The position numbers were made by a program, and so were the translations under genes. The notes beneath the pieces were generated by a model. That model ran no database searches. It saw nothing but the letters and a program-made list of their open reading frames with translations, and was not told where the DNA came from. From a candidate division WWE3 bacterium (GTDB taxonomy: Bacteria > Patescibacteriota > 4484-211 > GCA-002791395): DNA of 64,000 bases. Of the stretch, positions 662 through 60,440 are shown piece by piece. Each line of letters opens with the position of its first letter. The stretch's first letter is position 1. The stretch is from NCBI GenBank assembly GCA_013335095.1, contig JAAXWF010000001.1:292268-356267 (forward strand), given 5' to 3'.

Positions 662-1147
662 ATGGCAAGAATGCATAAAATCCCACAAAATGTAACGACC
701 TACGAAGGAAAAGTAATTGGTCGATTTACGGCTAAACAGTTCATATTTCTTGCGATCGGCGCCATTGCTATATTTTTGGTCATTAGTATACCGCTCCCCA
801 AAGTAGTAAAGATTGTATTAGGCATTATTTTTGGTCTTATATCATTAATATTCGCACTGGCAAATTTTCAAGGAAGAACAACTGATGTTTGGATTAGCAG
901 TTTTCTCAAAGGAGTTAACAGCGCAACTCAGCTAATCTGGCGAAAATCTTACTATCCTCCAATGTACCTACTCCCCGATTATCACCCACCTAAAATGGAG
1001 CGAGGTCCACGCAAACGTTCGACTAATGAACTAGAACGATTTATCCAGTTGTATCAGCCGCCACCGGAAAGTTCCGATTACAGCCCCGAAGAAAATGAAG
1101 TACTACAAAGATTGCGCGAGATGAAAAAACAAGGAGGTACAGCATAA
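662..1147 (+). CDS. Small polytopic membrane protein, first gene of the VirB4 operon (PrgI/VirB3-like topology)
   Basis: 161 aa with two hydrophobic helices near the N-terminus; stop/start is tightly coupled to the next gene (1147/1150). T4SS-associated role is inferred from context only. Confidence 0.35.
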   Translation: MARMHKIPQNVTTYEGKVIGRFTAKQFIFLAIGAIAIFLVISIPLPKVVKIVLGIIFGLISLIFALANFQGRTTDVWISSFLKGVNSATQLIWRKSYYPPMYLLPDYHPPKMERGPRKRSTNELERFIQLYQPPPESSDYSPEENEVLQRLREMKKQGGTA

Positions 1148-1149
1148 CC

Positions 1150-2487: not shown

Positions 2488-3208
2488 AAGCCAAGACTTT
2501 TTAGAAATAATTGATATTAAAGACGGAGTCCTTGTATTAAGCGGAGGTAAGTTCCGTGTGGTTATTGAAGCAACCGCAATCAACTTTGACCTCTTATCCG
2601 AAGATGAACAAAACGCAACTATATTTGCTTATTCTAACTTAGTAAACTCGCTCAACTACCCTATCCAGATTTTAGTCAGAACGCGTCAAGTCGATATCAC
2701 AAATTATTTGAGTTACCTCAAAAAGTATCTTCGGGATCAACCAACCGCAGCATTAAGAGAACAATTACAAGACTACATCGATTTTTGCCAACAGTTGGTT
2801 TTGGAAAATATCGTCTTACAGAAGCGATTCTTTGTTGTTATCCCCTATTGGCAATCATCAACAACAGGACCAAGCACGCCCCAAAAGAAAGCCAAATCCC
2901 CCGGGTTACTTGATGGACTTCCATTAATTGGCAAAAAATCCACCACGCAACCGTTGGTTGATGACACCATTTATTCAGAAGAAGCATTCAAAAAAGCGAA
3001 ACAAAGTTTGAATCAACGGTATGAAGAGGTTCGATGGCAGTTCAAACGTCTCGGGATACAAGTGCGTCTTTTAGGAACCGAAGAGCTAATTCGGTTATAT
3101 TATGAAATACTTAACCCCGAGACTGGTCAAAATAGAGGACTCAAAGACGATTTATATGGATATACCGTACCGATTGTTAACTCGGCACTCGATATCGGAG
3201 AATACTAA
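2471..3208 (+). CDS. Hypothetical protein, T4SS-operon member
   Basis: 245-aa ORF translationally coupled on both sides (its stop TAA is directly followed by the ATG of the VirB4-like gene). Confidence 0.5.
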   Translation: MKLLPKSQDFLEIIDIKDGVLVLSGGKFRVVIEATAINFDLLSEDEQNATIFAYSNLVNSLNYPIQILVRTRQVDITNYLSYLKKYLRDQPTAALREQLQDYIDFCQQLVLENIVLQKRFFVVIPYWQSSTTGPSTPQKKAKSPGLLDGLPLIGKKSTTQPLVDDTIYSEEAFKKAKQSLNQRYEEVRWQFKRLGIQVRLLGTEELIRLYYEILNPETGQNRGLKDDLYGYTVPIVNSALDIGEY

Positions 3209-5454
3209 TGGATAAAATATTAAAACCGCTAAAAGATTTACTATCACCGAAAAAAAACGCCTCAAAAGCGGCTGCTCCAGCTGGCTCTGGGAATGGACCA
3301 AAACCAGCAGTACCAACTTCTGCATCTCTTAAACCAGGTGTGACACCTGCAGCTCCAAATACGCCAGAACTACCAACTCAAACCGATCAGGTTGATCGTC
3401 AACAAATAGTTAAACAAGCCCAATTATTTGCGCGTGGATTAATTGATATTAGAGACATTATCGCGCCAAGTGGTATTGAAGTTGATTTTAATGAGATTAG
3501 AATCGGATCGACCTATTACCGAACATATTTTATCGCAGGATATCCGCGAGAAGTCGGCCCCAACTGGCTTGCTCCGTTAATTAACTTTCCTCAAGCCCTC
3601 GACATTTCGATGTTTTATTACCCAATCGATGCTCGAGACGTGCTCAAAAATTTGCGTCGAAAAATTACCGAGATGCAGACCGAGCTAAACATAGAGTATA
3701 AAGAAGGACGTATTTTAGACCCCGAAGTTCAATTAGCTCTTCAGGACGCAAAATCGTTACAGGATGAGCTTGTTGCAGAGCGGGAACGATTCTTCCAGTT
3801 TGCCTTATACATAACAATACCTCACGAAGACGTAAAACAACTCCATCTTATTTGTAAGCAGGTCGAAAGCATATTAGCCGGTATCCTTCTACTGACTCGT
3901 AAAGCGACTTTACAGATGGACGACGGTTTTAGATCAACCTTACCAATTCATAACGATAAACTCCAGGTCTACCGCAACATGGATACGACATCGATAGCAA
4001 GTACGTTTCCCTTTACTTCAAGTAGTTTAACCAGTGATGAAGGTATCCTGTACGGTATCAATGAGCATAACGGAAGTTTAGTTGTATTTGACCGATTTAG
4101 GATGGAAAATGCAAATTCGGTAGTATTTGGAAAATCTGGTTCAGGTAAAAGTTACACGGTTAAACTTGAAGCAATCAGATACCTACTTCTAGGCACAGAA
4201 ATCATTGTTATTGACCCTGAACAGGAATTCAGAACCCTCAGCGATGTTATTGGTGGAGAGTATATTACCTATGACTTCACCTCAAAAACACGTATTAATC
4301 CATTTGATCTATCTCAAGTGTTTGAAGAAGGAGAAGATCAGCTTGAGACGAAGATCTTAGTTCTTCACTCACTCATGAAACTAATGCTTGGAGATATGAC
4401 CGCTAGCCAAGAAGCGGTGTTGGACCGAGCACTTTTGGAGACGTATCGATTAAAAGGAATATCATCAGATCCAAGCACCCAGCGAAAAGAACCACCACTT
4501 ATGGAAGATTTGTATAAGGTATTTCTTGGAATGGAAGATGAAGACGCCAAAGAACTCTCAAAACGATTGGAAAAATTCGTCATGGGATCGGCTAAAGGAC
4601 TCTTTGACCAGCCGACTAACATCGATATAAAAAATACATTTACCGTATTCGGTATTCGCGATCTAGAAGAAACAATCCGACCGATTGGTATGTTCTTAAT
4701 TCTTGATTATATCTGGACCAGAGTCCGTCGTGACCGACGCAAACGTCTACTCTTCGTCGATGAAGCGTGGATCATGATGAAGAATGCCGATTCTGCTAAC
4801 TTCATGCATTCCCTTGCAAAGCGAGCCCGAAAATATTACCTGGGAATAACCACGATCAGTCAGGATATTGAAGATTTCTTCAACCATGAAAAGGGTTTAG
4901 CAATCATTAAAAACAGTTCCATTCAGGTGCTCATGAAACAATCATCAAGTGCTATAGATAAACTGGCGGATGTCTTTATCCTATCTGAAGGTGAGCAAAA
5001 TCTACTCTTGTCGGCAAACGTTGGTGAAGGATTATTCTTCGCCGGACAAAATCACGTCGCGATACAGATGGTAGCCGGTCTCAAAGAACACGAATTAATA
5101 ACAACCAACCCAGCCGAATTACAACAAATCGAACGGATGAAACAACAACAAAACTCCGATGACCGTATCCGTAAGCTACAAGAACAGGGTCGGTTAACAT
5201 TCCAGACACCAACACAGCCGGATGCCCAACCAGCCGAACAACAAATGACGGATATGACATCGGCTCCAACTCCCGATGCATTAGATCAAAACGCCGGAAT
5301 GCCAGCATCTGATTCTTATGAGGCAGCTCCGACCCAGCAAACTGAAACAGAGATGTCACAAGGTGTTGAGATTACTGATTTCTCCCAAGGAGAGTCGACC
5401 CAACCGTCTCAACCCGAAGCAACGACGTTGCCCGATGATCCATCACAGGTCTAA
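3208..5454 (+). CDS. VirB4/TrbE/CagE-family type IV secretion ATPase
   Basis: 748 aa. Walker A VVFGKSGSGKSYTVK, Walker B RLLFVDEAWIMM, then TISQDIEDF, with a size and domain order typical of VirB4-like conjugation/T4SS ATPases. Confidence 0.75.
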   Translation: MDKILKPLKDLLSPKKNASKAAAPAGSGNGPKPAVPTSASLKPGVTPAAPNTPELPTQTDQVDRQQIVKQAQLFARGLIDIRDIIAPSGIEVDFNEIRIGSTYYRTYFIAGYPREVGPNWLAPLINFPQALDISMFYYPIDARDVLKNLRRKITEMQTELNIEYKEGRILDPEVQLALQDAKSLQDELVAERERFFQFALYITIPHEDVKQLHLICKQVESILAGILLLTRKATLQMDDGFRSTLPIHNDKLQVYRNMDTTSIASTFPFTSSSLTSDEGILYGINEHNGSLVVFDRFRMENANSVVFGKSGSGKSYTVKLEAIRYLLLGTEIIVIDPEQEFRTLSDVIGGEYITYDFTSKTRINPFDLSQVFEEGEDQLETKILVLHSLMKLMLGDMTASQEAVLDRALLETYRLKGISSDPSTQRKEPPLMEDLYKVFLGMEDEDAKELSKRLEKFVMGSAKGLFDQPTNIDIKNTFTVFGIRDLEETIRPIGMFLILDYIWTRVRRDRRKRLLFVDEAWIMMKNADSANFMHSLAKRARKYYLGITTISQDIEDFFNHEKGLAIIKNSSIQVLMKQSSSAIDKLADVFILSEGEQNLLLSANVGEGLFFAGQNHVAIQMVAGLKEHELITTNPAELQQIERMKQQQNSDDRIRKLQEQGRLTFQTPTQPDAQPAEQQMTDMTSAPTPDALDQNAGMPASDSYEAAPTQQTETEMSQGVEITDFSQGESTQPSQPEATTLPDDPSQV

Positions 5455-7384: not shown

Positions 7385-8989
7385 TTACCGCTTTCTCGCA
7401 TACGCACCATTAATCCAACCTTGTTTTCCATCTTGCATTAAGATCAAAATATACCCGTTTTCCTCTCTAATCCAACCAAACTTGTCACCAGGAAATACTG
7501 TTGTAACAAGAGGTGCATTAAGGCCAGCACCTTCTCGGACATTTAAAAATCCTGTTGGTGTGTCTAGTATTGTTAACATATTAGTCTGCTCTCCAACGAC
7601 GTTCACCGATAAAGATATTCCGGAATCGGGAATAACATTCCCCTTTTCATCGCGTAATACAAACCTTTCATTAATCGTATCGGTATAAATAGGAGCTTTA
7701 AAATAAAATTGGAAGGTCGCGATAGAGCCCGGAAGCACCTGATCTTCAACAAAAGTTCCGACTTCATGGGGAGACCTCCAGCTCTCAGGATCATATAAAT
7801 ATGACTGTTCTCCCGTATCCGACGTGGTAAGTATCAACCGATGACTTCCCGACTTTTGCCATACAAATCCACTCATATTCTGCCATTTTAGTTCAGCTTT
7901 TCGCCGCTCCCCTGTCGAATAAGTCAGATTACTAAGTTGAGTTATTGATCTTGCATTTATCTGAGGATCCTTCCCAAGCTGAGAACGAAGCAGAGCAATA
8001 CTATGGCGAACCGCATCATTTAATGGCTTATCTTCGGAATTAACGACCAAAACAGGTGCAACATTGGCCTTATAACCAAGCTCCAAAAATTGAGAAAAAT
8101 CAAAATCAAAGATTCCCAACCCTTCATAAACCCGCCCCTTCTCATCAATTAAATAGGCAAACGGTAATCCAGTTGTCTTATATGTCGTTTCCATTAACGA
8201 TTCATATTCCCGCAAAAAATCCGGAAATAAATCGACATCGTTGTTTAACACCGAACCTTCGAGAGGAATACTCCAAACATCTAAAGAGTTCCAAGGTTTT
8301 ACGATCAATTTAAGATTATTCATAACCACCGATCCGCCCCCCCATTGTGCCCGAGACATTACGGTAAGGTCTCCATTGTCAGAGCCGGTATCTTCAACGT
8401 CCAATTTTTCGAGCTGATTTGTAAGTGAAGGAAGTAAGTCAACATTAATAGTGGTAAGTCGATCATTGGCAAAATCGAATTCGATAGTCTTATCCTGATA
8501 TCCTGGACGTTTAATCAGTATGGCGTGATGACCTGGGGCAACATCTTCTAAGGACAAGGGAGTAGATCCGACATCGGTGCCATCTAACGATATATTCGCA
8601 TTTGCCGGACGAGTTGCGATAACCACTTTACTTGAACCAGAAAATAATACGTGTGCAGGTTCGACACTTAATGAATATCCATAGGCAAACTTTTTATCAC
8701 CGGATATTTGACGTGAAATAATGCTTTCATTTCCAGAACCGATCGAAATTTTCTCTTTCCAAATATCTCCAATTTCGACAAGTTGCTTTCCTGCACTAAC
8801 TTCGACCGATTTCAACGGCGTATTCCCAACAATAACACCATTCACTTTTACTTCTTGAGAATCCATAGTTACATCAACCGAGAGAGTACCTTTTTCAGAA
8901 GTGGATGGACCATTAAAATAACCGAGCGCAAACCAAACGCCTACGATAACAGATACAATCAGAATAAATATTACGATGATACGGCTCAT
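7385..8989 (-). CDS. Cell-envelope protein with N-terminal transmembrane helix, PEGA domain and C-terminal SH3b-like domain
   Basis: 534 aa. PEGA-like segments VKVNGVIVGNTPLKSVEVSAG and ANISLDGTDVGSTPL...HHAILIKRPGYQDK; the C-terminus GFLNVREGAGLNAPLVTTVFPGDKFGWI...GKQGWINGAY resembles a bacterial SH3 domain. The stop overlaps the dnaN stop region, so it is operonic between dnaN and recF. Confidence 0.5.
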   Translation of the reverse strand: MSRIIVIFILIVSVIVGVWFALGYFNGPSTSEKGTLSVDVTMDSQEVKVNGVIVGNTPLKSVEVSAGKQLVEIGDIWKEKISIGSGNESIISRQISGDKKFAYGYSLSVEPAHVLFSGSSKVVIATRPANANISLDGTDVGSTPLSLEDVAPGHHAILIKRPGYQDKTIEFDFANDRLTTINVDLLPSLTNQLEKLDVEDTGSDNGDLTVMSRAQWGGGSVVMNNLKLIVKPWNSLDVWSIPLEGSVLNNDVDLFPDFLREYESLMETTYKTTGLPFAYLIDEKGRVYEGLGIFDFDFSQFLELGYKANVAPVLVVNSEDKPLNDAVRHSIALLRSQLGKDPQINARSITQLSNLTYSTGERRKAELKWQNMSGFVWQKSGSHRLILTTSDTGEQSYLYDPESWRSPHEVGTFVEDQVLPGSIATFQFYFKAPIYTDTINERFVLRDEKGNVIPDSGISLSVNVVGEQTNMLTILDTPTGFLNVREGAGLNAPLVTTVFPGDKFGWIREENGYILILMQDGKQGWINGAYARKR

Positions 8990-10125
8990 GCATTTGTCTC
9001 ATTGAGAGTCATCGGCATAACAATATGTTGATAATCGTGGCGATCATCAATCGCTTCAAGTAGTACGGGCGTACTCATACCGCTAATTTTAAGACGAATC
9101 TGTTCAGCATCAATCGATGAAACACCTTCTAATAAATAACGTGAATTAAATCCGAGTTGGATTGATTCGCCTTCAAGTACTCCGGTAATTTTACCGGTAT
9201 GACTTCCGACCTCTGAACTACGAGCGCTCAATTGCATAGTCTGAGTCTCTTTATCAAATTTTACCGTGATCGCTTGTCCTTCGCGAGAGGCAAACAGTGA
9301 TGTAGCTCGTATAGCTTCAATAAACTGTGATCGATTAAATGTTCCAGTCGTTACAAATTGCGTAGGGAATATTCGCTGATACGGAGGATATTCGGCTTCA
9401 AGAAGACGTGAGATAATCTCGACCTCACCATATTGGAAAAAGATTTGACTATCTTCTCGACTAAAAAATACCCCAACATTATCGGCACTCGTACTTGAAT
9501 CAGCTATCAGGTGATCAACCTCAGCCAGTGCTTGAGCAGGAACGATAATAGATCCATTCATCGCCGCATTGGTCGGTAATTTATATATAGACAAACGAAA
9601 ACTATCTGTCGCGACAACCGAAAGCATGCCCTCTTCAGCCTGAGTTAGTAGCGCACCAGTTAAAACAGGATGAGTCTCTCCTCCGGCAGCTGCAAAGCAC
9701 ACCTTTTTAACCATCCGACGAAATAGTTGAGGATCAAAACTCATATGGTTAGTTTGATTTTGACGACTTGGAAGCTCTGGAAAGTCCGTTGGTGGCATAG
9801 TTACGAACGTTGCTTGATTACTATTTGATTCAACAACTAATTGACGAAGATCACTATGCAACGTGAGTGTTTCGTCAGATAAGAGAGAGAGGAATTCACT
9901 GAATTTTTTTGCAGGTATAGTTATTTGTCCTGGTTCTTCGACTTTTGCCGCTATGGTTAATCGAATTGATAATTCAAGATTTGAAGATTCTATCTTTAAC
10001 AGGTTATCGGGAGTAGCGGTGAGCAGTAAGTTTGAAAGAATCGGTAAATTAGACTTAGTCGTGACTATCTTGGCGGCAAACAATGATCCTTTGTACAAAC
10101 GCTCACGAATTACGCTTAATCTCAT
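8986..10125 (-). CDS. dnaN: DNA polymerase III beta subunit (sliding clamp)
   Basis: MRLSVIRERLYKGSLFAAKIVTTKSNLPILSNLLL aligns with the DnaN N-terminus. The ORF track extends 12 codons further upstream (to 10161) but MRLSV is the likely start. Three-domain length of about 380 aa. Confidence 0.85.
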   Translation of the reverse strand: MRLSVIRERLYKGSLFAAKIVTTKSNLPILSNLLLTATPDNLLKIESSNLELSIRLTIAAKVEEPGQITIPAKKFSEFLSLLSDETLTLHSDLRQLVVESNSNQATFVTMPPTDFPELPSRQNQTNHMSFDPQLFRRMVKKVCFAAAGGETHPVLTGALLTQAEEGMLSVVATDSFRLSIYKLPTNAAMNGSIIVPAQALAEVDHLIADSSTSADNVGVFFSREDSQIFFQYGEVEIISRLLEAEYPPYQRIFPTQFVTTGTFNRSQFIEAIRATSLFASREGQAITVKFDKETQTMQLSARSSEVGSHTGKITGVLEGESIQLGFNSRYLLEGVSSIDAEQIRLKISGMSTPVLLEAIDDRHDYQHIVMPMTLNETNA

Positions 10126-10161
10126 AGTCAATACTTTAACATACACATTCTTTAGTAGCAA

Positions 10162-10404
10162 TTATAGGGGACGTGGATTAGTGGAAAACTACGTTACGCT
10201 ATGTTGATATACGCAAAGTGTTGTGGAAACTGTCGGGAAGAGTTTGGGATAGATTGTGGATTATTCACAATCTATAAATATTTATCCACAAAATAAAAAT
10301 ATAATCTACAAACTATCCACAAAATATAAAAAGTTATCCACAATTACAAACTTTGAGATACATTTATTAAAATTACGCCTATGAAATTATTATCCTAAAG
10401 ATGG
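10162..10404. promoter_or_regulatory. Putative oriC: DnaA-box cluster plus AT-rich unwinding region between dnaA and dnaN
   Basis: Perfect TTATCCACA boxes at 10282-10290 and 10334-10342; near-perfect boxes TTATTCACA (10261), CTATCCACA (10313), TAATCTACA (10302), TTGTGGAAA (10221) and TTGTGGATT (10254), followed by an AT-rich tract (aaaatataaaaag, catttattaaaatt). Further boxes lie upstream of dnaA (TGTGGATAA at 11922-11930, TTGTGGAAA at 11847). Confidence 0.7.
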
Positions 10405-11820
10405 TTATCCGTAGAGTTCCTGACGAATGTGATGAAGGTGGGAGCGTAATAGGGGATTATTATTTTGTTCGATAGCCTGTTTAATTCGATCGCATCCATG
10501 CATAACGGTCGTATGATCTCGTCCACCCAGAACCTCGCCTATTTCTTCGAGGTTCATCCCTAGTTCATTTCGTAAAAGAAACATCGTCATTTGGCGGGGG
10601 AGTACGATCTCCTTTTTTCGTTTTTTTCCGCAGAGGTCTTTTATGCTTGTGTCGAATTGGCGTGTTACTAATTCGAGTATTAGTTCCGGAGTGATACGTT
10701 TTTGAACGGTTTGTACATCGGCTTTGGGTTCTATAACTGATCGGACAAATGCGAGATTGATTGGCTGTGATTGAGTATTGGCCAGTGATTTAACCTGCAG
10801 GAGTGTTCCTTGAATCTCTCGAACGTTTTGACTTGATTGTTCGGCAATGTACTCGTAAATAGCATCGCTTAGATTTATTTGCAATTCTTCAGCTTTTGTT
10901 CGAACGATAGCGAGACGCGTTTCGTAATCCGGCGGGCTTATCTGAACCATTAATCCGCCCTTAAATCGCGAGATTAGTCGATCGGTTAATCCTTGAATTT
11001 GGGATGGTTCGCGGTCTGATACAACGACGATTTGGCTGCCTATTTGTTGCAGTTCATTAAAGCTGTGGTAAAACTCTTCCTGGCTCGACTCCTTTCCTGC
11101 GAGAAACTGGATGTCATCGATTAAAAGGGCATTACAGGTTCTGTAGCGGCTTCTGAACTGTTGCATATCCTTTTTCTGTCTCAGGTGTTCAACCATGTCG
11201 TTAACAAACTTTTCGCTGGTTGTATACATAATTCGATACGAGGAGAAGTTCTCTAATATCCCATTCCCAATCGCATGGAGGAGGTGCGTTTTTCCAACGC
11301 CAGTTGATCCATAAATGAATAGTGGATTATAAATGTGTCCAGGATTTTCCATGACCGATACCGCAGCTGCGTGTACCACCCGATTGCTTGGCCCAACTAC
11401 ATAATTGTCTAGCGTCATCTGGGGATTTAGAAGTCCTACCTCTGGTCTTTGAATAGACATTGTCGAACTTTCTCGTGGGGTGTAGGTGGTTGGGGATGAG
11501 TTTGTGGCCAGTGGAGAGGCTTTTAAGTCTGGGGCTTCGTCAAATAAGGGCCCGTGCACCGGTGTTTGTACGCGAAGAGGCTTCACAATAAAGTCGATGC
11601 TGTATTTACGTTGCTCGATCTGTCGGATGATATCGGCGATTTTATCGGCATAGCGTTTTTGGATAATACTTTTGCTATATGAATCGGTACAAGCGATGAT
11701 TATTTTATCTTCACTTGTTTCATAAAGCTGAGTGTTGCGAAACCACGTAGATACTGCAGCTGGATCTAATTCTATTTCTAATGTTGCTAAGACTTGTTGC
11801 CATAAATTGGGAGAAGCCAT
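10405..11820 (-). CDS. dnaA: Chromosomal replication initiator DnaA
   Basis: 471 aa. AAA+ Walker A NPLFIYGSTGVGKTHLLHAIGN, a C-terminal DNA-binding domain (HTTVMHGCDRI), and DnaA boxes on both flanks. Confidence 0.9.
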   Translation of the reverse strand: MASPNLWQQVLATLEIELDPAAVSTWFRNTQLYETSEDKIIIACTDSYSKSIIQKRYADKIADIIRQIEQRKYSIDFIVKPLRVQTPVHGPLFDEAPDLKASPLATNSSPTTYTPRESSTMSIQRPEVGLLNPQMTLDNYVVGPSNRVVHAAAVSVMENPGHIYNPLFIYGSTGVGKTHLLHAIGNGILENFSSYRIMYTTSEKFVNDMVEHLRQKKDMQQFRSRYRTCNALLIDDIQFLAGKESSQEEFYHSFNELQQIGSQIVVVSDREPSQIQGLTDRLISRFKGGLMVQISPPDYETRLAIVRTKAEELQINLSDAIYEYIAEQSSQNVREIQGTLLQVKSLANTQSQPINLAFVRSVIEPKADVQTVQKRITPELILELVTRQFDTSIKDLCGKKRKKEIVLPRQMTMFLLRNELGMNLEEIGEVLGGRDHTTVMHGCDRIKQAIEQNNNPLLRSHLHHIRQELYG

Positions 11821-11944
11821 GATGTTCTCCTACGATACTTGTTTTTGTGGAAAACTGTCAATTCGATTTTAGGTTGATACGTTAGTGTTTTTAGGTCAAT
11901 GGGAAGTATAGGCTACTGCTATGTGGATAACTCTGGTTTTGTAA

Positions 11945-15249: not shown

Positions 15250-16824
15250 CTATTTTTTAACCGTATCAATGCCAATTACTTGAGAGATATGATTAAAGCC
15301 ATCTCGTTGAAGAAGTTCTTCCAAACCTAGATTTATCGATCCTATTAACTGTGGGCCAACAAAAATCATACCGGTAATAAGTTGTACCAAGCTTGCGCCA
15401 AGTCGTATCTTTGTATATGCATCTTCAGCCGAGAAGATTCCGCCACACCCAATAATGGTGAATCGCTCGTGATACGTGCCGTATGCCCGAGAAATTAATT
15501 CATTTGAGCGATTCCAGGTTGGTTTACCGCTAAAGTTTCCTACCGTAAACTGGTTTACTTCATCAGCTTGCAGTGGTTCGGCGGTCCTGTCTTTTTGCAG
15601 GTTTCCGACAATTATTCCGACAATCAAAGGTTCTTGAGCGAGCGTTTCTAATATGGCATCAAATTGATCATTTGTTACAGATATCGGCATTTTAACCCAA
15701 ATTGGACGGGTGATATTAAGTTTATGTACGCCTTGCAATAGTACCGAGAGATTATCCACGTTATAGAAATCTATTGAGGTTTGTAAATTCGGACAGCTAA
15801 TATTTAGTTCGTAATATGAATGAGAGAGCGTTGAGTGCTCGAACTTCTTAAATGTTTCGGTAATATCGATTACTGCATCCTCTACAGTTTGTATGTCTGA
15901 AGTATTTGTTGTTCCGATACTCACCCCTATTTGCCCAAACATTTCGTGTTTTGCCAGTTTTGTAATTACCGTGTCGGCTCCGGGGTTACGAAAGCCTTTG
16001 TTAACCATGAGCGATTGTGACTGTATCAATCGTCCAAGTTGTGGATCCGGATTACCCTGGCATGGTTTGTTGGTGATTGTTCCGATCGTTTGAAAACCGA
16101 ATCCCATGCTTTCTAGAATTTGAGTTAATTGAGCGTTGTAATCAAATCCGGCAGCTAACCCCACAGGAGAACTAAAGTGAACACCATGATACGCTTGGCA
16201 TAATTTTGAAGAATCATAGTCGTATAACCACGACATAAATGTTCTGGTTATGAGGCATTTTCCAAGTAATTCGCCCACGTTGGTCATACCTATGTGCACT
16301 GTTTGAGGCTTATGAGTAAACAGGAGTGGTTTTAGAACTCTTTGATATCCGATCTTAGTTGCAAAGCTTATTGTATCGACCCGTTCTCGTGTCATTATCA
16401 GCCATATAACCCCAGCGATTACAGTTGATATAAATGCTGATGTGGTGCAGAAAAGGCAGATCGCGCCAATGACAAAAATTTGTAAATACATAAAGTACAG
16501 TGAAGCGAAAAATCCTCCCGCACTGATAGGGTAGAGTAATCGATCGACAAACTTTGTCTTTGGATTTAAGGTTAGTAGCGTTACGGTAAGTATCGTCAGG
16601 TAATAAATAACGCCGATATATGCAAGTGGTATCGAAAATATTTGTGAATAGCTGCTCTGCAGGACACTTCCGCAGTCACTCGCCAAAAATCCGACGCTAC
16701 ATTGTGGTATTGTTCCTGTTGCATGCTCATATGATAGATACCCAGCGTCAAGTAGGCCGAAAGTTGCTAAGCTAAGTATCGAAAGCTTGGCGAAAGATAG
16801 TGAGTTTGATGTAGTGTGAGTCAC
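15250..16824 (-). CDS. Fusion protein: N-terminal VKOR (vitamin K epoxide reductase) membrane domain + C-terminal dihydroorotate dehydrogenase-like flavoenzyme domain
   Basis: VKOR loop Cys pair CSVGFLASDCGSVLQSSYSQ and the TM4 CXXC (ICLFCTT) across five predicted helices. The C-terminal half aligns to family-2 DHODH over its full length (GLAAGFDYN, GFGFQTIGTITNKPCQGNPDPQLGRL, NKGFRN, IIGCGGIFSAEDAYTKIRLGASLVQL), but the catalytic-base position reads NISCPN (Cys, as in family 1) rather than Ser. Confidence 0.7.
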   Translation of the reverse strand: MTHTTSNSLSFAKLSILSLATFGLLDAGYLSYEHATGTIPQCSVGFLASDCGSVLQSSYSQIFSIPLAYIGVIYYLTILTVTLLTLNPKTKFVDRLLYPISAGGFFASLYFMYLQIFVIGAICLFCTTSAFISTVIAGVIWLIMTRERVDTISFATKIGYQRVLKPLLFTHKPQTVHIGMTNVGELLGKCLITRTFMSWLYDYDSSKLCQAYHGVHFSSPVGLAAGFDYNAQLTQILESMGFGFQTIGTITNKPCQGNPDPQLGRLIQSQSLMVNKGFRNPGADTVITKLAKHEMFGQIGVSIGTTNTSDIQTVEDAVIDITETFKKFEHSTLSHSYYELNISCPNLQTSIDFYNVDNLSVLLQGVHKLNITRPIWVKMPISVTNDQFDAILETLAQEPLIVGIIVGNLQKDRTAEPLQADEVNQFTVGNFSGKPTWNRSNELISRAYGTYHERFTIIGCGGIFSAEDAYTKIRLGASLVQLITGMIFVGPQLIGSINLGLEELLQRDGFNHISQVIGIDTVKK

Positions 16825-16928
16825 GAGATTTCCTAATATTTTGTAATACTGAGATTTACTGATATTATAACCCAGTAATGTAGTATCAGTCTTTGCGAAT
16901 GTAGTGATAATATAGTACGTCTTGGCTT

Positions 16929-17576
16929 ATGCAAAAAGATACGTATACTTTTTTGAATAGCTACTTTGAACATAATCCTATGCACCATTTGGATGCAGGG
17001 GATATCTTAGTCCATCCTTCAAACCATTCACCAAATCTTCATTTCTTAGTAAGCGGCACCATTAAACAATATTCTATTGGAAGTAACGGTGAGGAATTAG
17101 TTATAACGGTGTATAAGCCGGGTAGTTTTTTTCCTTTAATGACGGCGCTTGGCGATATTCCTAATCGATATTATTTTAGCGCGCCGGAAGAATCAGAGGT
17201 TCGGATAATCTCGGTGGATGAAGTTAAAGAATTACTTCAAAAAGAACCAACGATTATGTTTGATCTGATAGGACGATTACTCCGAGGTATGCACGGGATA
17301 ATTAGTCGTTTAGAGTCGATCGCATTGGGGGACGCCCATGCACGGGTTGGGACGATGATCGCAATAACAGCTAAGCGTTTTGGCAAAAAAAACGATACCG
17401 GGAGCTTGGAGATTTCTTTAACACATCAAGAGATTGCGGCTGCTACTGGACTTAACCGAGAAACAGTTACCCGAGTACTGCGACATTTTAAAGAGATGGG
17501 GTATATCGATGCCGAGCATGGACATTTATACGTTCGAGATATTTCTATACTCGAATCTTTAGTTGCCGGGGAATAA
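16929..17576 (+). CDS. Crp/Fnr-family transcriptional regulator
   Basis: N-terminal cNMP-binding beta-barrel pattern and C-terminal HTH (SLTHQEIAAATGLNRETVTRVLRHFKEMGYI). Confidence 0.65.
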   Translation: MQKDTYTFLNSYFEHNPMHHLDAGDILVHPSNHSPNLHFLVSGTIKQYSIGSNGEELVITVYKPGSFFPLMTALGDIPNRYYFSAPEESEVRIISVDEVKELLQKEPTIMFDLIGRLLRGMHGIISRLESIALGDAHARVGTMIAITAKRFGKKNDTGSLEISLTHQEIAAATGLNRETVTRVLRHFKEMGYIDAEHGHLYVRDISILESLVAGE

Positions 17577-17597
17577 CTATTTTCACTATATAAAGTA

Positions 17598-17645
17598 AGG
17601 GCCGGCACCTTCTGATCTTGGTGATCAGTTGGTACCGGCCGTGTT
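17598..17645 (-). terminator. Intrinsic terminator downstream of island gene A
   Basis: On the minus strand: GGCCGGTACC...GGTGCCGGCCC stem enclosing an inner TGATC/GATCA palindrome, followed by a T-rich tract. Confidence 0.4.
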
Positions 17646-18221
17646 TTAGCGCGAAGGTCGAAGGACCTCGACCATGATCTGCTCTTTTAGGGCGGTTATC
17701 CCACCCTGCGAGAGCTTCTCGGTGATGAGGTCATGTCCGAGACCTGACCGTGCCGCCGCTGACCTCGCCCTCATCATATCGCCATATTGGCGGATGAGGT
17801 CTTCTACCGGCTCGTAGCCGGTGAAGCACTGGCCGAGCGTCATTGCGAGCAGGTTGGCTGGGATGCCGACCCGACGAGCCTGTATACGAAGGCTTTCCCG
17901 ATACTCACGTTCGGTAAGGTAACCTTCGTCCTCGTCTGGTTTCGGACGATGCCCGTTGAGCCGGTTGGTGCCGGCGAACCAGGCCGCTAGTTGTGCAATC
18001 TCTGGCTCGGTGGCTGCCCGTTTCGGGTCAGTTTTTCGAGTCAAAGCACACAGCTGAGCGGCGAGCTCGATGAACTCCCGGTCAACGATTATCGTGACCG
18101 GCTTGGGCTGGGCGATCGGCCGAGCCGGTCCCGACAACCCTTGACGCTTGAGCAGTTCGAGCGTTTTGGTTTTTCCGCCTCTAGCACCGTTATGTTGGTG
18201 CTTCCGTTGGGTGGTGGTCAA
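17646..18221 (-). CDS. Hypothetical protein (GC-rich island gene A)
   Basis: About 65 % GC. AAGGAGG RBS 5 nt upstream of a TTG start at 18221 (the ORF track extends to 18287). A consensus sigma70 promoter TTGACA-N18-TATAAT lies on the minus strand at 18258-18287. The product is Ala/Arg-rich with no recognised domain. Confidence 0.5.
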   Translation of the reverse strand: MTTTQRKHQHNGARGGKTKTLELLKRQGLSGPARPIAQPKPVTIIVDREFIELAAQLCALTRKTDPKRAATEPEIAQLAAWFAGTNRLNGHRPKPDEDEGYLTEREYRESLRIQARRVGIPANLLAMTLGQCFTGYEPVEDLIRQYGDMMRARSAAARSGLGHDLITEKLSQGGITALKEQIMVEVLRPSR

Positions 18222-18257
18222 GCCGACCTCCTTTGTTTTCAAAGAACTCGTTTTTAT

Positions 18258-18287
18258 ATTATAGGATAAAGATGTGTGTGTTGTCAA
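18258..18287 (-). promoter_or_regulatory. Consensus sigma70 promoter for island gene A (TTGACA N18 TATAAT on minus strand)
   Basis: Reverse complement of 18282-18287 is TTGACA and of 18258-18263 is TATAAT; the RBS and TTG start follow about 35 nt downstream. Confidence 0.5.
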
Positions 18288-18393
18288 AACGAAAAAACCC
18301 GGCCCTTTTTTCGCTCCCGAAGGAGAAAAATAGGTACCGGGTTGTGAAGAAGGGGACTGTGGTTAAGCCCCCTCCCTCTTCCGACTTAGCGAA
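18288..18393 (-). repeat. Structured repeat element copy 1 (UUCG-tetraloop hairpin nested in ACCCGG/CCGGGT stem) directly after stop of island gene B
   Basis: Shares about 90 nt with 19408-19504: ACGAAAAA(A)CCCGGCCCTTTTTTCGCTCC...GGAG...AGGTACCGGGT..GTG...CCGACT.GCGAACTA.GCC. The inner stem loop is CUCC-UUCG-GGAG on the minus-strand RNA. Confidence 0.55.
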
Positions 18394-19059
18394 CTAGGCC
18401 GCGGCCAGCTCGTGCTCGTGGATCACGGGCATCGGGCAGGTGCGCACCGGCTCCGGGGCCTTCTTGGCGGCGATGGCCGCCTCGAGGGCCGAGAAGTCGA
18501 CCTCACACTCCTCCTTGAGGATGCGGGTGACCTCGTTGGTGTCGATGCCAGCATCGGCGGCCTGCTTGCGCAGCTTGGCCAGGAGAGTGTGGCGGTGGTT
18601 GTCCGCCTTCTTCTTGGCCTCGGCCTTTTCGACCTCGAGCTCGGCGCGGCGCTCGATGAGCGCGCGCTTGGCCAGGCGGAACTCGTCGTCCCAGCCTCGG
18701 GCAATGATCTGCCCGAAGTTGGCCTTGCCCATCCCGAGTTCCTCGGCCTGCTTAAGCAGCGACCGCTTGATCTCGATGAGCTTGGTGTGGCGCAGCTTGG
18801 CCTGGTAGCGCTGCTCATAGAGCTTTGCCACCTCGGCGAGGGCTTCGGCGTTCTGCGCCTGGGCGACCTCGTCGACGCGGTACTCGATGCCGCGGTCGTG
18901 GCTCCAGTTGAGTAGCGCCAGCTTAGCCTTGAGCAGCATCAACTCCTCGAACTCCATCTCGCTGCCGTTCTTGCTCGTGAGCCCAGCGCGGCGGGCGCGG
19001 GGGCCGATGTCGGCGCGGAGACGGATGAGCTGGCTCTGCTGGCTGTTGTCGGTAGTCAT
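18394..19059 (-). CDS. Hypothetical coiled-coil protein (GC-rich island gene B)
   Basis: 221 aa at about 68 % GC; GAGGAG RBS 8 nt upstream of ATG. Charged/Ala-rich heptad segments (KRALIERRAELEVEKAEAKKKAD). Confidence 0.5.
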   Translation of the reverse strand: MTTDNSQQSQLIRLRADIGPRARRAGLTSKNGSEMEFEELMLLKAKLALLNWSHDRGIEYRVDEVAQAQNAEALAEVAKLYEQRYQAKLRHTKLIEIKRSLLKQAEELGMGKANFGQIIARGWDDEFRLAKRALIERRAELEVEKAEAKKKADNHRHTLLAKLRKQAADAGIDTNEVTRILKEECEVDFSALEAAIAAKKAPEPVRTCPMPVIHEHELAAA

Positions 19060-19228
19060 GGGAGATTCTCCTCATGCATGTGGGGCATCTGCCCCATATC
19101 TTGACCACTAGGTCTCCATAAGACTGGGCGAGCCCTTTTTAGGGGGCGGCCCATCATTCCGACGGGTTGAGGGCGTGAGCCCTCTCCGAACCCCCGAAGG
19201 GGTCCCAAGTTACCCCGCCAGGCGGGTT

Positions 19229-19282
19229 ACTATGGGTGAACCAACTTGTCGATCTGTATCAACCGGTTAATTCACCCATAGT
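19229..19282. repeat. 12-bp perfect inverted repeat ACTATGGGTGAA...TTCACCCATAGT with 30-nt spacer, upstream of island gene B
   Basis: Read directly from the sequence. A second copy of the same arm sequence with a different spacer lies at 20366-20431 upstream of gene C. Confidence 0.6.
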
Positions 19283-19407
19283 TGTTCGCATTTACTTTGA
19301 AAAGTACGGTGTAATAACGTGTGTGTTATTACGGCAAACGGTTCTTATATTATAGCGAAATAGGGGATAAAAGTCAATTGCTATGGGGTAGTTGTGCGTA
19401 GCGTATA

Positions 19408-19504
19408 ACGAAAAACCCGGCCCTTTTTTCGCTCCTTGCGGAGGAATTAGGTACCGGGTGGTGGTGGGAGTCCCGGAGGACTCCCGCCGATCCGACTGTG
19501 CGAA
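19408..19504 (-). repeat. Structured repeat element copy 2 (GCAA-tetraloop version) directly after stop of island gene C
   Basis: Same element as 18288-18393; the inner hairpin here is CUCC-GCAA-GGAG on the minus strand, a compensatory GNRA loop in place of UUCG. Confidence 0.55.
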
Positions 19505-20179
19505 CTACGCCACCTTCTTGCCCTTCTTGCCACCGCCCTGCTTGTGCAGGGGCTGCTCGTTCGAGGGCCCCTTGGGGTTGGGGTTGCCGACGTTGGTGCG
19601 GCCACCCGGGGCGCGGTGCTGGGCGCTGGTGGCCTGCTTGGCCTCGATCTGGTCGAGCCAGTCGGTGAACAGCGCGTAGTTGCGCTGCGCGACGGCCTCG
19701 GCGAGGCGGGTCTCGCGGGTGCGGGTGTCGATGCCCATCTTCTTGGCGCGGAGGAGCAGGAAGCCGCGGTAGGTGCGGTCCTGCTGCATCTCGCGGATGC
19801 GCTCGTCGCGCTCCGTGGCCTCGGCCTCGAAGGTGCTCTTGGCGACCGCCTGCTGGGCGGCCTTAGCCTCGAGCTGGACAGCCTGCTCGCGCTTGGCGAT
19901 CCGGGCCTTGTAGCCCTTCATGCCGTTGGCGCGCTGGCGGAGCTTCTTGGCGTCCTCGGGGCAGATGCCCACGAGGTCGAAGAAGCTCACGTCGTTCAGG
20001 CCGACCGACGTGGTGAGCTCGAACAGCTCGAACGCCGCGTCGAGCGCGGCCTGGTCGATGCTGTGGAGCCTCATGACGATCTTCGCCCGGTCGGGGTTGC
20101 CGACGTTGGGGACGATCCCGAGCTTGCTGGCGCGGCTGACGTTGCGGGCGCGGAGCTCGAGGGTGCTGTTCGTCGTCAT
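19505..20179 (-). CDS. Hypothetical protein (GC-rich island gene C), distant paralog of gene B
   Basis: Start taken at MTTNSTLELRARN (the ORF track begins 16 codons earlier). Its N-terminus shows limited similarity to gene B (TT.S..L.LRA....RA..G). About 66 % GC. Confidence 0.45.
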   Translation of the reverse strand: MTTNSTLELRARNVSRASKLGIVPNVGNPDRAKIVMRLHSIDQAALDAAFELFELTTSVGLNDVSFFDLVGICPEDAKKLRQRANGMKGYKARIAKREQAVQLEAKAAQQAVAKSTFEAEATERDERIREMQQDRTYRGFLLLRAKKMGIDTRTRETRLAEAVAQRNYALFTDWLDQIEAKQATSAQHRAPGGRTNVGNPNPKGPSNEQPLHKQGGGKKGKKVA

Positions 20180-20365
20180 GGTAGGGCCGTTCCTTTCTGC
20201 GGGGGCGAGAAGCCCCCCTAGAGCCACCTGATGTGGTGGCCTCCTGGGCTAGGGACACAGCGACGCGCTGGTCCCTCCTGGGGTAAATGGTGGGTTTAAC
20301 CCCACCGGTGCGGCAAAGGTTGCCGCTCCACCCAACCGGGCGTGGGTTTCCCACGTGCCGGCCAT

Positions 20366-20431
20366 TTATGGGTGAATAGAGGCGCCTAGGAGGGCCCCAA
20401 TAAAGGGGTAAGCACCTCTGTTCACCCATAA
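20366..20431. repeat. Inverted repeat TTATGGGTGAA...TTCACCCATAA (about 44-nt spacer) upstream of island gene C
   Basis: Same arm sequence as the inverted repeat at 19229-19282; its inner part carries an additional imperfect palindrome (AGAGG.GC / GCACCTCT). Confidence 0.55.
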
Positions 20432-20597
20432 AAGCAGGAAAAAGGAACGAAAGGACTACCAATAAACGTAGTTCTTAAGTCGTGATGAAAATGTGCAAAG
20501 GGTATCTTATAAAAGTACCCCGTAAGCCCTGATAAGAGCTTACGTAATTATTATAGGGCATATTAGTGCCGAAAGTCAAGAGTTATGGGGTATAGAA

Positions 20598-20674
20598 TGG
20601 TACGCCCGGAGGGATTCGAACCCCCGATCTTCAGGACCGGAACCTGACGCTTTATCCAGCTAAGCTACGGGCGC
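20598..20674 (-). tRNA. tRNA-Arg (anticodon CCG), CCA encoded
   Basis: Manual fold of the reverse complement: acceptor GCGCCCG/CGGGCGT (with a G1-U72 pair), D-arm GCTT-AGCTGGATA-AAGC, anticodon stem TCAGG/CCTGA with loop TTCCGGT (anticodon CCG), T-arm GGGGG-TTCGAAT-CCCTC, discriminator A, CCA. Lies at the edge of the GC-rich island. Confidence 0.8.
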
Positions 20675-21753: not shown

Positions 21754-23148
21754 TTAGACTCTTAGCCCTAGCTCTGCGATCCAGTGCTCGGTGATTGCCC
21801 GGGTTCGTTCTACCGCCTGACCCAAGTAGTGTGTGGGGTCGTCAAAAAGCTGAAGCTCGGCCGGTTGGAACTGCCGCAAATACGGCTCGAGCGATGTGGT
21901 CTTTTGCGCAACCATGAGCAGTGTCTCGTTTGGAACAAGCGAACGACGCATCTCGTTGGTTACGAGTCTAACCGCCTCATGTGCATCTGGATGGCCGTAT
22001 TTGGCCAGCAGAATGTATAGCGGTTCGGCCATGGTTAAATCGGCCATGAACGAAACGTTGGCGCTCATTTGGCGTCGGTTTACCGCCAACTTTCGCATCG
22101 CCCGGTTCAGTCGAGTAATCATATTCGCCAGATATGCGACGATCTCGACCATTGTTCGGCCCGACGCCGATCCGGTTAAATCCCGCTGATGCTCGCTGAT
22201 CTGGTCAAGCATCACCGTGACCATTCTTCCTACAAGTACCTTCCATTGGCTCTCGATCTGCTCGAACGTGATCGGGTTCTTTTTGTGCGGCATGGTCGAT
22301 GATCCGACGTCCGCTCGACCCTGAACTTCTCCGACCTCATTGATTTCGGTGCGTTGCAGATGCCTCATATCGCGGGCAATATTGGCCAGGATTCCTCCGG
22401 TAAATGCCAACTCATTCATCAACCGCATCATCGGCTCGGGGGGAGCGATCTGGGTTGAATGAATGTCGCTCGAAAGACCAAGAGCCGACATTACCACCTG
22501 CTCATGGGCGAATCCATCGTCCACAACGAGCTGCATCGCGTTGTACGAACCAACCGCTCCGGAAAACTTACCGACCAATTGTCCGGTAAGCGTCGTGAGC
22601 ATGTTGATCGAATTGCCGAGTCGGTTGATGTATCCACATACGGTGAACCCGAATGTGACCGGTACGGCATGCTGACCATGGGTTCGGCCGATCTGGATGG
22701 TGAGCGCCTCGTTTTTAGCGATAGCGACGAGCGTCTCCAGCAGATCAATAAGCCGAGGGATAATCACATCATCCATCACTTCGGTCATGCGCAGCGCATT
22801 GGCCGTATCGATAATGTCGTATGACGTTGCCCCGAGATGGACGTACTGCCGCATATCTGGGGGGAGTAGCGACGTGAATACATTCACCAGTGCCCGGATG
22901 TCGTGATGGATTCGATCCTCTTCGGCATACACCGCTTCGGTCGTAACCTTTTGGCTTGCCTCAAGTGCCGCCTGGCATACCTCATCGGTGCAGACCCCGG
23001 CATCGCATAATGCGCTTAAGTGAGCAAGTTCGACACGTAGCAGATATCCCGTGAATGCTTCTGCACTAAGTCTCTTTGCGACCTCGCTATCATAGTAGCG
23101 ATAATCGAGCGGCGATATGGCATCAAATCTTCCCGATCTCTGAGTCAT
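21754..23148 (-). CDS. purB: Adenylosuccinate lyase
   Basis: N-terminal ISPLDYRYYD motif and fumarate-lyase signature GSSTMPHKKNPITFE; 464 aa. Confidence 0.75.
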   Translation of the reverse strand: MTQRSGRFDAISPLDYRYYDSEVAKRLSAEAFTGYLLRVELAHLSALCDAGVCTDEVCQAALEASQKVTTEAVYAEEDRIHHDIRALVNVFTSLLPPDMRQYVHLGATSYDIIDTANALRMTEVMDDVIIPRLIDLLETLVAIAKNEALTIQIGRTHGQHAVPVTFGFTVCGYINRLGNSINMLTTLTGQLVGKFSGAVGSYNAMQLVVDDGFAHEQVVMSALGLSSDIHSTQIAPPEPMMRLMNELAFTGGILANIARDMRHLQRTEINEVGEVQGRADVGSSTMPHKKNPITFEQIESQWKVLVGRMVTVMLDQISEHQRDLTGSASGRTMVEIVAYLANMITRLNRAMRKLAVNRRQMSANVSFMADLTMAEPLYILLAKYGHPDAHEAVRLVTNEMRRSLVPNETLLMVAQKTTSLEPYLRQFQPAELQLFDDPTHYLGQAVERTRAITEHWIAELGLRV

Positions 23149-40038: not shown

Positions 40039-40100
40039 GGATTCTTGTGCGTCTGTGAGTAAACCGGGGCCGCCTGAAATATGGCGGCCCTTTTCATATC

Positions 40101-60439: not shown

Positions 60440-60440
60440 C

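Follow-up and report, generated by a model that had tools for sequence, protein, structure and literature searches.

A VKOR domain fused to a class 2-type dihydroorotate dehydrogenase scaffold in a candidate division WWE3 bacterium: a candidate quinone-coupled redox enzyme

The locus and its product

We analyzed a 64-kb stretch of a contig from a candidate division WWE3 bacterium (64,000 nucleotides, hereafter the window), in which a gene on the minus strand at 15250-16824 encodes a VKOR domain followed by a dihydroorotate dehydrogenase (DHODH)-like flavoenzyme. The open reading frame (ORF) list gives this region as one unbroken frame of 524 amino acids, and a Shine-Dalgarno-like AGGAAA lies 5 nt upstream of its GTG start. 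A site scan detected no excess of promoters or terminators around the gene relative to shuffled sequence. The exact protein is deposited at NCBI as NTV30672.1, on a 536-kb contig and under the name 'dihydroorotate dehydrogenase (quinone) [candidate division WWE3 bacterium]'. The gene and the parts of its product are listed below; TM4 is the fourth predicted transmembrane (TM) helix and FMN is flavin mononucleotide.

15250..16824, minus strand: VKOR-DHODH-like fusion ORF, 524 amino acids, GTG start, identical to NTV30672.1
16408..16779, minus strand: VKOR domain PF07884, residues 16-139 (Pfam E 2.6e-22)
16672..16701, minus strand: loop cysteine pair C42...C51, CSVGFLASDC, residues 42-51; predicted extracytoplasmic, both cysteines invariant
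16654-16656, minus strand: conserved Ser57, downstream of the loop cysteine pair
16447..16458, minus strand: active-site CXXC, CLFC, residues 123-126 (C123 and C126); predicted at the outer end of TM4 beside the VKOR quinone pocket, invariant
16222..16392, minus strand: N-terminal helices of the DHODH module, residues 145-168, 173-189 and 191-201, the counterpart of the quinone-tunnel domain of class 2 enzymes
16294-16296, minus strand: invariant H177 (human H56), within those helices
16030-16032, minus strand: R265 (human R136), kept
15310..16203, minus strand: DHO_dh TIM-barrel FMN domain PF01180, residues 208-505 (Pfam E 2e-49)
16138..16146, minus strand: FDY, residues 227-229, with Tyr229 aligned to the FMN/orotate-binding lysine of class 2 enzymes (human K100)
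15991..16005, minus strand: VNKGF, residues 274-278, with Lys276 in place of human Y147, reciprocal to the K100-to-Tyr change
15787..15810, minus strand: catalytic loop ELNISCPN, residues 339-346, with Cys344 at the class 2 serine position; invariant in 132 fused and 95 unfused proteins

The two domains form a conserved fusion

An earlier note on this DNA, made from the sequence alone, had named a frameshift or assembly error joining two genes as a finding that would undo its reading. Such an error is ruled out, because an identical protein is encoded in an independent Logan assembly of run SRR11449211 and all of the best database homologues (120 of 120) carry both Pfam domains, VKOR and DHO_dh. 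We counted more than 130 full-length fused proteins related to it at about 50% identity; the 120 best, from Roizmanbacteria, WWE3 and entries labeled 'Patescibacteria group' (Microgenomates/WWE3), are 48-53% identical. A scan of species-representative genomes added more fused genes, for instance in Woesebacteria (L006; L numbers denote loci). The fusion does appear split in two metagenomic loci, L098 (1308-2935) and L100 (9505-10945), where the gene is broken into two ORFs and, in L100, the quinone-tunnel helices are absent at the junction. These copies are either sequencing errors or pseudogenes, which shows that such events occur in the family. Nevertheless, it is extremely improbable that two neighboring genes were artificially joined, or that a VKOR remnant was kept only as a membrane anchor: besides the independent assembly and the many full-length homologues, the four VKOR cysteines and Ser57 are all invariant, and the predicted structure described below runs continuously from TM4 into the first DHODH helix.

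The architecture is already visible in public databases and is built from known families; public pipelines uniformly label proteins of this type 'quinone-dependent dihydroorotate dehydrogenase'. A full-text literature search found no paper describing a VKOR-DHODH fusion, and all papers mentioning VKOR together with DHODH concerned ferroptosis.

The VKOR module carries both cysteine pairs

The VKOR half scored 79.8 bits against PF07884 (cutoff 27.5) and covered profile positions 3-132 of 134. Both motifs of the VKOR signature that the earlier note had recognized, CSVGFLASDC and CLFC, were verified at residues 42-51 and 123-126, and C42, C51, S57, C123 and C126 are invariant in an alignment of 120 homologues. 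This half also aligned to the Synechococcus VKOR structures 3kp9 and 4nv2 (E 7e-8), where its two cysteine pairs fell on those of the structures. As judged from these alignments, C42 and C51 are the predicted relay pair, which would exchange electrons with a DsbA/MdbA-like partner.

In an exhaustive search, the nearest relatives of the module were short VKORs or VKOR-DHODH fusions, some of them truncated, and no thioredoxin fusions were found among its closest relatives. The earlier note had set the flavoenzyme partner against a general habit of bacterial VKORs to be fused to thioredoxin or DsbA-like domains. The unusual partner stands, but the general habit was overstated for this part of the family. 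Relatives of 'intermediate length' were considered as new fusion types and rejected, as they are VKOR-DHODH fusions truncated by contig ends. One further architecture was seen: in the 237-residue protein P0134, a signal peptidase I (Peptidase_S26/S24) is fused N-terminally to a close relative of the window's VKOR module, which ties VKOR to the processing of secretory proteins. The fusion gene at L084 has a Peptidase_S26 gene 1.5 kb upstream.

The flavin module joins a class 2 scaffold to a class 1-like catalytic loop

The suggestion that the C-terminal half is a complete DHODH-like domain running along the membrane-associated family 2 enzymes was borne out by Pfam, by class 2 NCBIfam models and by chains in the PDB. 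Class 2 NCBIfam models scored 210-283 bits, whereas class 1 models reached 62-76 bits against cutoffs of 269-330; the best class 2 PDB chains matched at E 1e-41 and class 1A chains at E 1e-13. The flavin half exceeded the cutoff of the 'pyrD_sub2' equivalog TIGR01036 (216.9 bits against 200), fell just under that of NF003652 (266.6 against 267) and stayed far below those of the other PRK05286 sub-models.

For residue mapping, the human DHODH sequence served as the numbering reference. The register of this mapping is sound, because Q47, H56, A95-G97, K100, R136, N145, N212/S215/N217, K255, N284/T285 and Y356 all fell at their published numbers. In class 2 DHODHs the FMN/orotate-binding lysine, human K100, belongs to a G-F/L-D-K motif, and the catalytic base is a serine, S215 in the human enzyme and S175 in that of E. 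coli. HMMER alignments with the M. tuberculosis and rat class 2 enzymes placed NISCPN (residues 341-346) opposite NVSSPN, so that Cys344 occupies the catalytic serine position and the family 1-type cysteine proposed in the earlier note is confirmed. ELNISCPN is the class 1B motif letter for letter, and a pattern scan with it also drew in Bacillus-type pyrD genes.

Much of the class 2 site is retained. H177 and R265, which correspond to the quinone/inhibitor-tunnel residues H56 and R136 of the human enzyme, are kept in 135 of 135 sequences. The FMN- and pyrimidine-binding residues N341, N346, K378 and N408 (human N212, N217, K255 and N284) and the FMN-phosphate glycines are also kept. Other positions are changed and fixed in the changed state. 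Human S215 is replaced by C344; K100 and Y147 are swapped reciprocally, to Y229 and K276; the substrate asparagine has moved by one position, with V274 at human N145 and the asparagine at N275 (human R146); and T218, T285 and Y356 are replaced by L347, L409 and I483. A cysteine in a GCGG motif, C460, was considered as a fusion-specific thiol and rejected, being equally conserved in unfused relatives.

By these sequence criteria both modules look catalytically intact, and the flavin module is best described as a class 2 scaffold with a class 1-like catalytic loop, ELNISCPNL. The score above the TIGR01036 cutoff keeps a conventional PyrD role in play, but the fixation of several active-site positions in a non-canonical state speaks against a role in pyrimidine synthesis.

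The cysteine base predates the fusion

Related genes were sorted by two positions into type A (cysteine base and FDY), type B (cysteine base and the canonical lysine, FDK) and canonical (serine and FDK). In the metagenome sample we counted about 21 type A loci (7 with the fusion), 26 loci of type B, none of which is fused, and about 28 canonical genes. Unfused type A relatives are about 370 amino acids long, start exactly at the first DHODH helix and share the residue signature of the fusion: Y229, K276, C344, L347, L409, H177 and R265 are invariant alike in the type A proteins compared, 132 with the fusion and 95 without it, the latter from the candidate phyla radiation (CPR). The cysteine base is thus present in 227 of 227 type A proteins, and also in about 26 unfused type B relatives. 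In a rough neighbor-joining tree, the unfused cysteine forms were basal to the fused clade.

These alignments and the tree indicate that the cysteine base predates the fusion, and that fusion to VKOR arose inside a group of class 2-scaffold enzymes with a cysteine base. The cysteine that the earlier note had pointed out is thus not specific to the fusion; since it is invariant in the unfused relatives, adaptation to VKOR cannot account for it. Class 2-scaffold enzymes with a cysteine base make up a sizeable and apparently unstudied group.

Type B genes were found at L107, L109-L125, L128-L133, L156, L157, L161, L166 and L169 (metagenome contigs) and at L017. Their products score comfortably above both NF003652 and TIGR01036 and are intermediate between canonical class 2 enzymes and the fused type. 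When the unfused protein was sought in cultured Saccharibacteria, the relatives of L011 proved to come from Paceibacterota/Parcubacteria-type metagenome-assembled genomes and to include no cultured members. Some taxonomic labels sit poorly with the genes: L005, L009, L010 and L016 carry CPR-type genes, fused or unfused, on CPR-like contigs labeled 'uncultured Gammaproteobacteria' or 'Pseudomonadales', and L015 is labeled 'Pacearchaeota archaeon'. The labels or the binning are probably wrong, and for L015 transfer to DPANN archaea may also have occurred.

Predicted topology places the two redox centers on opposite membrane faces

An AlphaFold2 model built on 120 homologues was confident (mean predicted local distance difference test score 94.1, predicted TM-score 0.92). 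In this model, of the kind that the earlier note had proposed as a check, TM4 leads straight into the quinone-tunnel helices. TM helices were predicted at residues 3-36, 67-84, 91-119 and 124-143, and a short loop helix follows the first cysteine pair. The amphipathic DHODH helices 145-168, 173-189 and 191-201 begin past a kink of one residue after TM4 and are followed by the beta/alpha barrel. AlphaFold and Pfam agree that a fifth TM helix and a C-terminal extracytoplasmic thioredoxin-like domain are absent and that DHO_dh stands in the C-terminal place. The flavin half superposed on full-length M. tuberculosis class 2 DHODH, quinone-tunnel domain included, with a TM-score of 0.95 and a root-mean-square deviation of 1.8 A over 362 columns; in the fold comparison no solved structure matched both halves together.

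A cytoplasmic C-terminus is expected, because the protein has a four-helix VKOR core without the fifth helix of the thioredoxin fusions. Positive charges, counted over 125 fused sequences, give the same orientation by the positive-inside rule. The loops predicted to be cytoplasmic hold on average 2.7 Lys and Arg residues (the 10-residue TM2-TM3 loop) and 2.9 (just past TM4), and those predicted to be outside hold 1.8 (the 30-residue loop with the cysteine pair) and 0.5 (the TM3-TM4 turn). In this model both VKOR cysteine pairs face outward and the flavin domain lies in the cytoplasm, so that two rigidly joined redox modules, each with a conserved quinone site, occupy opposite faces of the membrane.

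With the cysteine pairs outside and the flavin inside, direct transfer from thiol to flavin is implausible, and a lipid-soluble carrier, a quinone, is implied. Of the two routes that the earlier note had offered, by quinone or directly to the flavin domain, the direct one is accordingly unlikely; the tunnel histidine and arginine are also invariant. We consider it probable that the VKOR and flavin modules are coupled through quinone.

Separate DHODH and VKOR genes are linked in the reverse order

Two loci show unfused versions of the pair. On the 1.57-Mb contig of L088, the stop codon of an unfused type A gene for DHODH (10001-11128) shares sequence with the start of a free-standing VKOR gene (11128-11598), whose 156-residue product has both cysteine pairs. 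At L130, a gene for a VKOR-like protein with four TM helices comes 12 nt after a type B DHODH gene. The genes of each pair are translationally coupled. In both cases the order is DHODH then VKOR, the reverse of that in the fusion, which marks these pairs as linkage events separate from it. They support functional coupling of the modules independently of the fusion. We are highly confident that the VKOR-flavoenzyme pair is real, conserved and functionally coupled.

All-against-all clustering of the neighbors at 20 loci revealed no general conserved neighborhood; NUDIX and DUF998 neighbors are lineage-specific, and weak recurrence was seen for the methionine sulfoxide reductase MsrA, at 4 loci, and for a Crp-family regulator, at 3. 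In the window the regulator is divergent from the fusion gene:

16929..17576, plus strand: Crp-family regulator with a cyclic nucleoside monophosphate-binding domain and a helix-turn-helix domain, no cysteines

A Crp-family gene also adjoins the fusion at L086 and lies two genes upstream of the DHODH-VKOR operon at L088. The divergent regulator may control the fusion gene, and its membership in the system is uncertain.

MsrA genes were found within 10 kb of type A genes at L016 (9418-9969), L084 (8525-9085), L086 (16128-16667) and L095 (2929-3369); that of L016 is directly upstream of the type A gene on the same strand. This linkage exceeds expectation for one gene chosen beforehand, but the choice was post hoc and the excess is marginal after multiple testing. 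At L089, a gene at 15930-17396 combines a cytochrome b-type membrane domain (Ni_hydr_CYTB) with a molybdopterin oxidoreductase domain and resembles a fused MsrQ/MsrP. It is located 5 kb away from an unfused type A gene and might likewise consume quinol in this CPR-like genome.

Host metabolism and a conventional role in pyrimidine synthesis

The host belongs to candidate division WWE3, part of the CPR, a group reported to lack a complete electron-transport chain, which agrees with the premise of the earlier note that the organism probably has no respiratory chain. A complete chain has been found in no Patescibacteria genome (PMC7507113), and CPR quinones are probably scavenged (PMC6031116). 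No quinone-biosynthesis gene was found in the 64-kb window. A complete WWE3 genome was reported to hold few nucleotide-biosynthesis genes, and some CPR were reported with pyrimidine pathways (PMC3812714). VKOR, MdbA-like oxidoreductases and sortases are enriched in CPR, where VKOR/MdbA has been linked to pilin folding (PMC6744442); the window encodes two sortases.

A complete pyrimidine pathway had been named in the earlier note as a second finding that would undo its reading. No pyrB, pyrC, pyrE, pyrF or carAB gene was found in the window, nor within 10 kb of about 45 related type A/B loci in jackhmmer searches with Bacillus pyr-operon seeds. Candidate matches were rejected on closer assignment. 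An 'OMPdecase' Pfam match at L002 (370-1047), 9.6 kb from the fusion, is the hexulose-6-phosphate synthase of the ribulose monophosphate pathway according to NCBIfam; a 'PyrB' match at L007 (2612-3598) is an ornithine-carbamoyltransferase-like protein by the same database; and PyrK-like matches were generic FAD/NAD reductases not adjacent to the DHODH gene. The genes at L002 and L007 are easily mistaken for members of the pyrimidine pathway.

These observations bear on the possibility that the protein is a conventional PyrD tethered to VKOR, in which dihydroorotate oxidation and thiol oxidation would both reduce a scarce, scavenged quinone. The fusion or operon would then co-localize and co-regulate two quinone enzymes and anchor DHODH in the membrane, and the quinol would be re-oxidized elsewhere, by O2, by an oxidase or by exchange with a host. 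Such an arrangement would have both modules run in the direction of all characterized members of their families, and it accords with the equivalog-level likeness to class 2, the comfortable scores of type B relatives, the conserved FMN, pyrimidine-binding asparagine and quinone-tunnel residues, the abundance of unfused forms and the pyrimidine pathways of some CPR. However, two quinone reducers without a quinol oxidase would be a dead end in cells without an electron-transport chain (PMC7507113), and WWE3 is reported to have few genes for nucleotide synthesis (PMC3812714). A conventional PyrD also leaves unexplained the cysteine base, the Lys/Tyr swap and the loss of the Thr218 and Thr285 equivalents; the repeated linkage, as fusion and as reverse-order operon, suggests more than co-localization; and the absence of pyr genes near the roughly 45 loci adds weak evidence in the same direction. 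On balance we regard this explanation as less likely than not, though only slightly less probable than the electron sink considered next.

Direction of electron flow

If both modules act on quinone, one of them should oxidize quinol, because, with no other quinone enzymes in the cell, reduction of quinone by both would lead nowhere. In the reading we favor, the protein would be a two-module, quinone-coupled redox enzyme of the cytoplasmic membrane. A DsbA/MdbA-like partner would oxidize secreted or pilus proteins and would itself be re-oxidized by VKOR, which would reduce quinone at the outer site. Both modules would share one quinone, probably scavenged; the quinol would be re-oxidized at the DHODH tunnel on the inner membrane face, reducing FMN, and the reduced flavin would hand electrons to a soluble cytoplasmic acceptor with Cys344 as general acid. 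The acceptor would most plausibly be fumarate, as in class 1A DHODHs, or O2, rather than orotate, and the protein would by itself provide the electron sink for making disulfide bonds in a cell that has no respiratory chain. One potential source of fumarate is encoded in the window:

21754-23148: adenylosuccinate lyase

This direction is favored because CPR bacteria need disulfide formation yet lack a sink for its electrons, because WWE3-type genomes appear not to make pyrimidines, because, to our knowledge, every VKOR characterized so far is a thiol oxidase, and because cysteine is the acid/base of class 1A and 1B DHODHs, which reduce fumarate or orotate.

Textbook redox potentials constrain the acceptor. 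The orotate/dihydroorotate couple lies at about -0.25 V, DsbA-type thiols at about -0.12 V and fumarate at +0.03 V; a typical DHODH flavin lies at about -0.25 V and menaquinone at about -0.07 V. Orotate, which the earlier note had offered together with fumarate as a soluble acceptor, would by these textbook values be an uphill sink for DsbA-type thiols (about -0.25 V against about -0.12 V), whereas fumarate or O2 is feasible. Fumarate is used as the sink of oxidative folding in yeast, where the Osm1 fumarate reductase serves Erv1/Ero1 anaerobically (PMC6242907, PMC5638582).

Several observations weigh against this reading. Transfer from quinol to FMN would be uphill at the potential of a typical DHODH flavin, so that the flavin would need retuning. 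In the window no gene for a thioredoxin, DsbA or MdbA-like protein was found. Around most unfused type A genes, the flanking 10 kb hold no gene for VKOR, which implies that the flavoenzyme also works without a tethered VKOR. That pyr neighbors are missing says little, because even the canonical class 2 pyrD genes of this sample almost never lie beside pyr genes (only at L143). Finally, the TIGR01036 score and the kept pyrimidine-binding asparagines mean that the flavin module may be a plain PyrD.

Electrons might also flow the other way, from dihydroorotate or another cytoplasmic donor through FMN and quinone to the VKOR CXXC and relay cysteines and on to extracytoplasmic disulfides. This would be a reductive or repair function like that of DsbD/CcdA or MsrPQ, and would also give DHODH an acceptor without respiration. 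By textbook values such a relay is downhill overall, from a donor at about -0.25 V to disulfides at about -0.12 to -0.2 V, and it would be as self-contained as an outward-to-inward sink. The four type A loci with MsrA nearby are a weak hint in its favor, and the MsrQ/MsrP-like gene of L089 points the same way. However, a reductive role in vivo is not known for any member of the VKOR or DsbB families, and the relay needs a supply of dihydroorotate that WWE3-type genomes may lack. The MsrA example sequence has no signal peptide and, as noted, its linkage is marginal, while CPR biology, with its MdbA-like proteins, pilins and sortases, points to a need for disulfide formation. We therefore consider reverse flow unlikely.

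The fused protein probably wires thiol and flavin redox reactions together in organisms without a respiratory chain. The specific direction from thiol through VKOR and quinone to FMN and then fumarate or O2 is a possibility that we put forward with less than even confidence. Slightly more tentative is the description of the protein as a single-polypeptide minimal electron-transport chain, in which a single captive, scavenged quinone would ferry electrons across the membrane and the flavin domain, with its cysteine acid and relocated lysine, would have been turned from pyrimidine synthesis into a quinol oxidase that discharges onto fumarate or O2.

Implications

CPR/Patescibacteria account for a large share of bacterial diversity. 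Reports describe them as devoid of respiratory chains, of quinone synthesis and of most nucleotide synthesis. The conserved fusion, together with the operon link at other loci, names a concrete candidate for the missing partner that would take up the electrons released by disulfide formation in these bacteria. If true, the minimal-chain interpretation would explain both disulfide formation in respiration-less CPR and the 'orphan PyrD' of genomes unable to make pyrimidines. The analysis also defines a large DHODH subfamily, with a class 2 scaffold and quinone tunnel and a class 1 catalytic loop, that breaks the textbook rule by which class 2 has a serine base and class 1 a cysteine base. If the domain is an orphan in genomes without the pathway, current DHODH annotations mislead metabolic reconstructions of CPR.

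Other features of the window

The dnaA (10405-11820, minus strand) and dnaN (8986-10161, minus strand) genes lie close to the fusion. DnaA-box clusters (TTATCCACA, at most 1 mismatch) occur at 10255-10342 in the dnaA-dnaN spacer (5 boxes) and at 11846-11930 upstream of dnaA, and the cumulative GC skew has its minimum near 10 kb. By these signs the dnaA-dnaN region resembles the origin of chromosome replication; it lies about 3.5 kb away from the fusion.

Next to the Crp regulator is a 3-kb island (17500-20500) with 51-72% GC, against about 40% for the genome, which abuts a tRNA-Arg(CCG) gene (20598-20674, minus strand). Its ORFs at 17646-18287, 18394-19059 and 19505-20227 have no Pfam or PHROG match, and the contig of an independent assembly stops at about 20627. 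The island is probably a foreign insertion or a region of assembly problems. Other GC-rich patches (50-55%) lie at 38000-40100, 48500-54700 and 60000-62000; their ORFs mostly lack Pfam and PHROG matches or have just zinc-ribbon domains (49436-50497 and 51756-52277).

A type IV secretion or conjugation-like cluster spans 662-5454 and encodes a PrgI-family protein and a VirB4/TraG-type ATPase (DUF87, AAA_10, P-loop_TraG; 3208-5454). The window also has a tRNA-Ile gene with anticodon UAU (47177-47253), which is uncommon in bacteria. AUA is usually read in bacteria by a lysidine-modified CAU tRNA.

Comparison with known systems

The VKOR module has the same four-helix core, cysteine pair, serine and CXXC, all in register, as the Synechococcus VKOR-thioredoxin fusion (3KP9/4NV2) and the stand-alone VKORs of Mycobacterium and Actinomyces. 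Stand-alone VKORs of these two genera re-oxidize DsbA/MdbA, and the quinone-dependent thiol oxidase chemistry of bacterial VKORs is likewise expected of the fusion. CPR genomes pair VKOR with MdbA-like proteins (PMC6744442). Unlike the Synechococcus and plant LTO1 type, the fusion has a cytoplasmic C-terminal flavoenzyme in place of a fifth TM helix and periplasmic thioredoxin, and its host group is reported to lack a complete respiratory chain, by which the quinol is normally re-oxidized.

With class 2 DHODHs (M. tuberculosis 8OFW, E. coli 1F76, human 1D3G) the flavin module shares its fold, including the quinone-tunnel helices, and its FMN residues. It differs from them in the changes fixed across 227 relatives (Ser to Cys, K100 to Y, Y147 to K, the shifted N145, T218 to L, T285 to L and Y356 to I), in being joined to an integral membrane redox module and in the lack of any pyrimidine-pathway context found. 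With class 1A/1B enzymes (L. lactis, trypanosomatid, Bacillus PyrD/PyrK) it has the cysteine base in common, and ELNISCPN is the motif of class 1B. Class 1A enzymes reduce fumarate at the same site, and class 1 enzymes are soluble and have no N-terminal quinone-tunnel domain. In contrast, the fusion carries the N-terminal class 2 domain, and its overall similarity to class 1 is low (62-76 bits).

If thiol electrons do end on fumarate through the flavoenzyme when respiration with O2 is unavailable, the logic would be that of E. coli, where DsbB passes electrons through menaquinone to fumarate and nitrate reductases, and of yeast, where Erv1/Ero1 are served by Osm1/Frd1. Unlike in those organisms, one polypeptide or operon here supplies both the thiol oxidase and the flavoenzyme that would act as the terminal oxidant, and the flavoenzyme belongs to the DHODH family rather than to that of the fumarate reductases.

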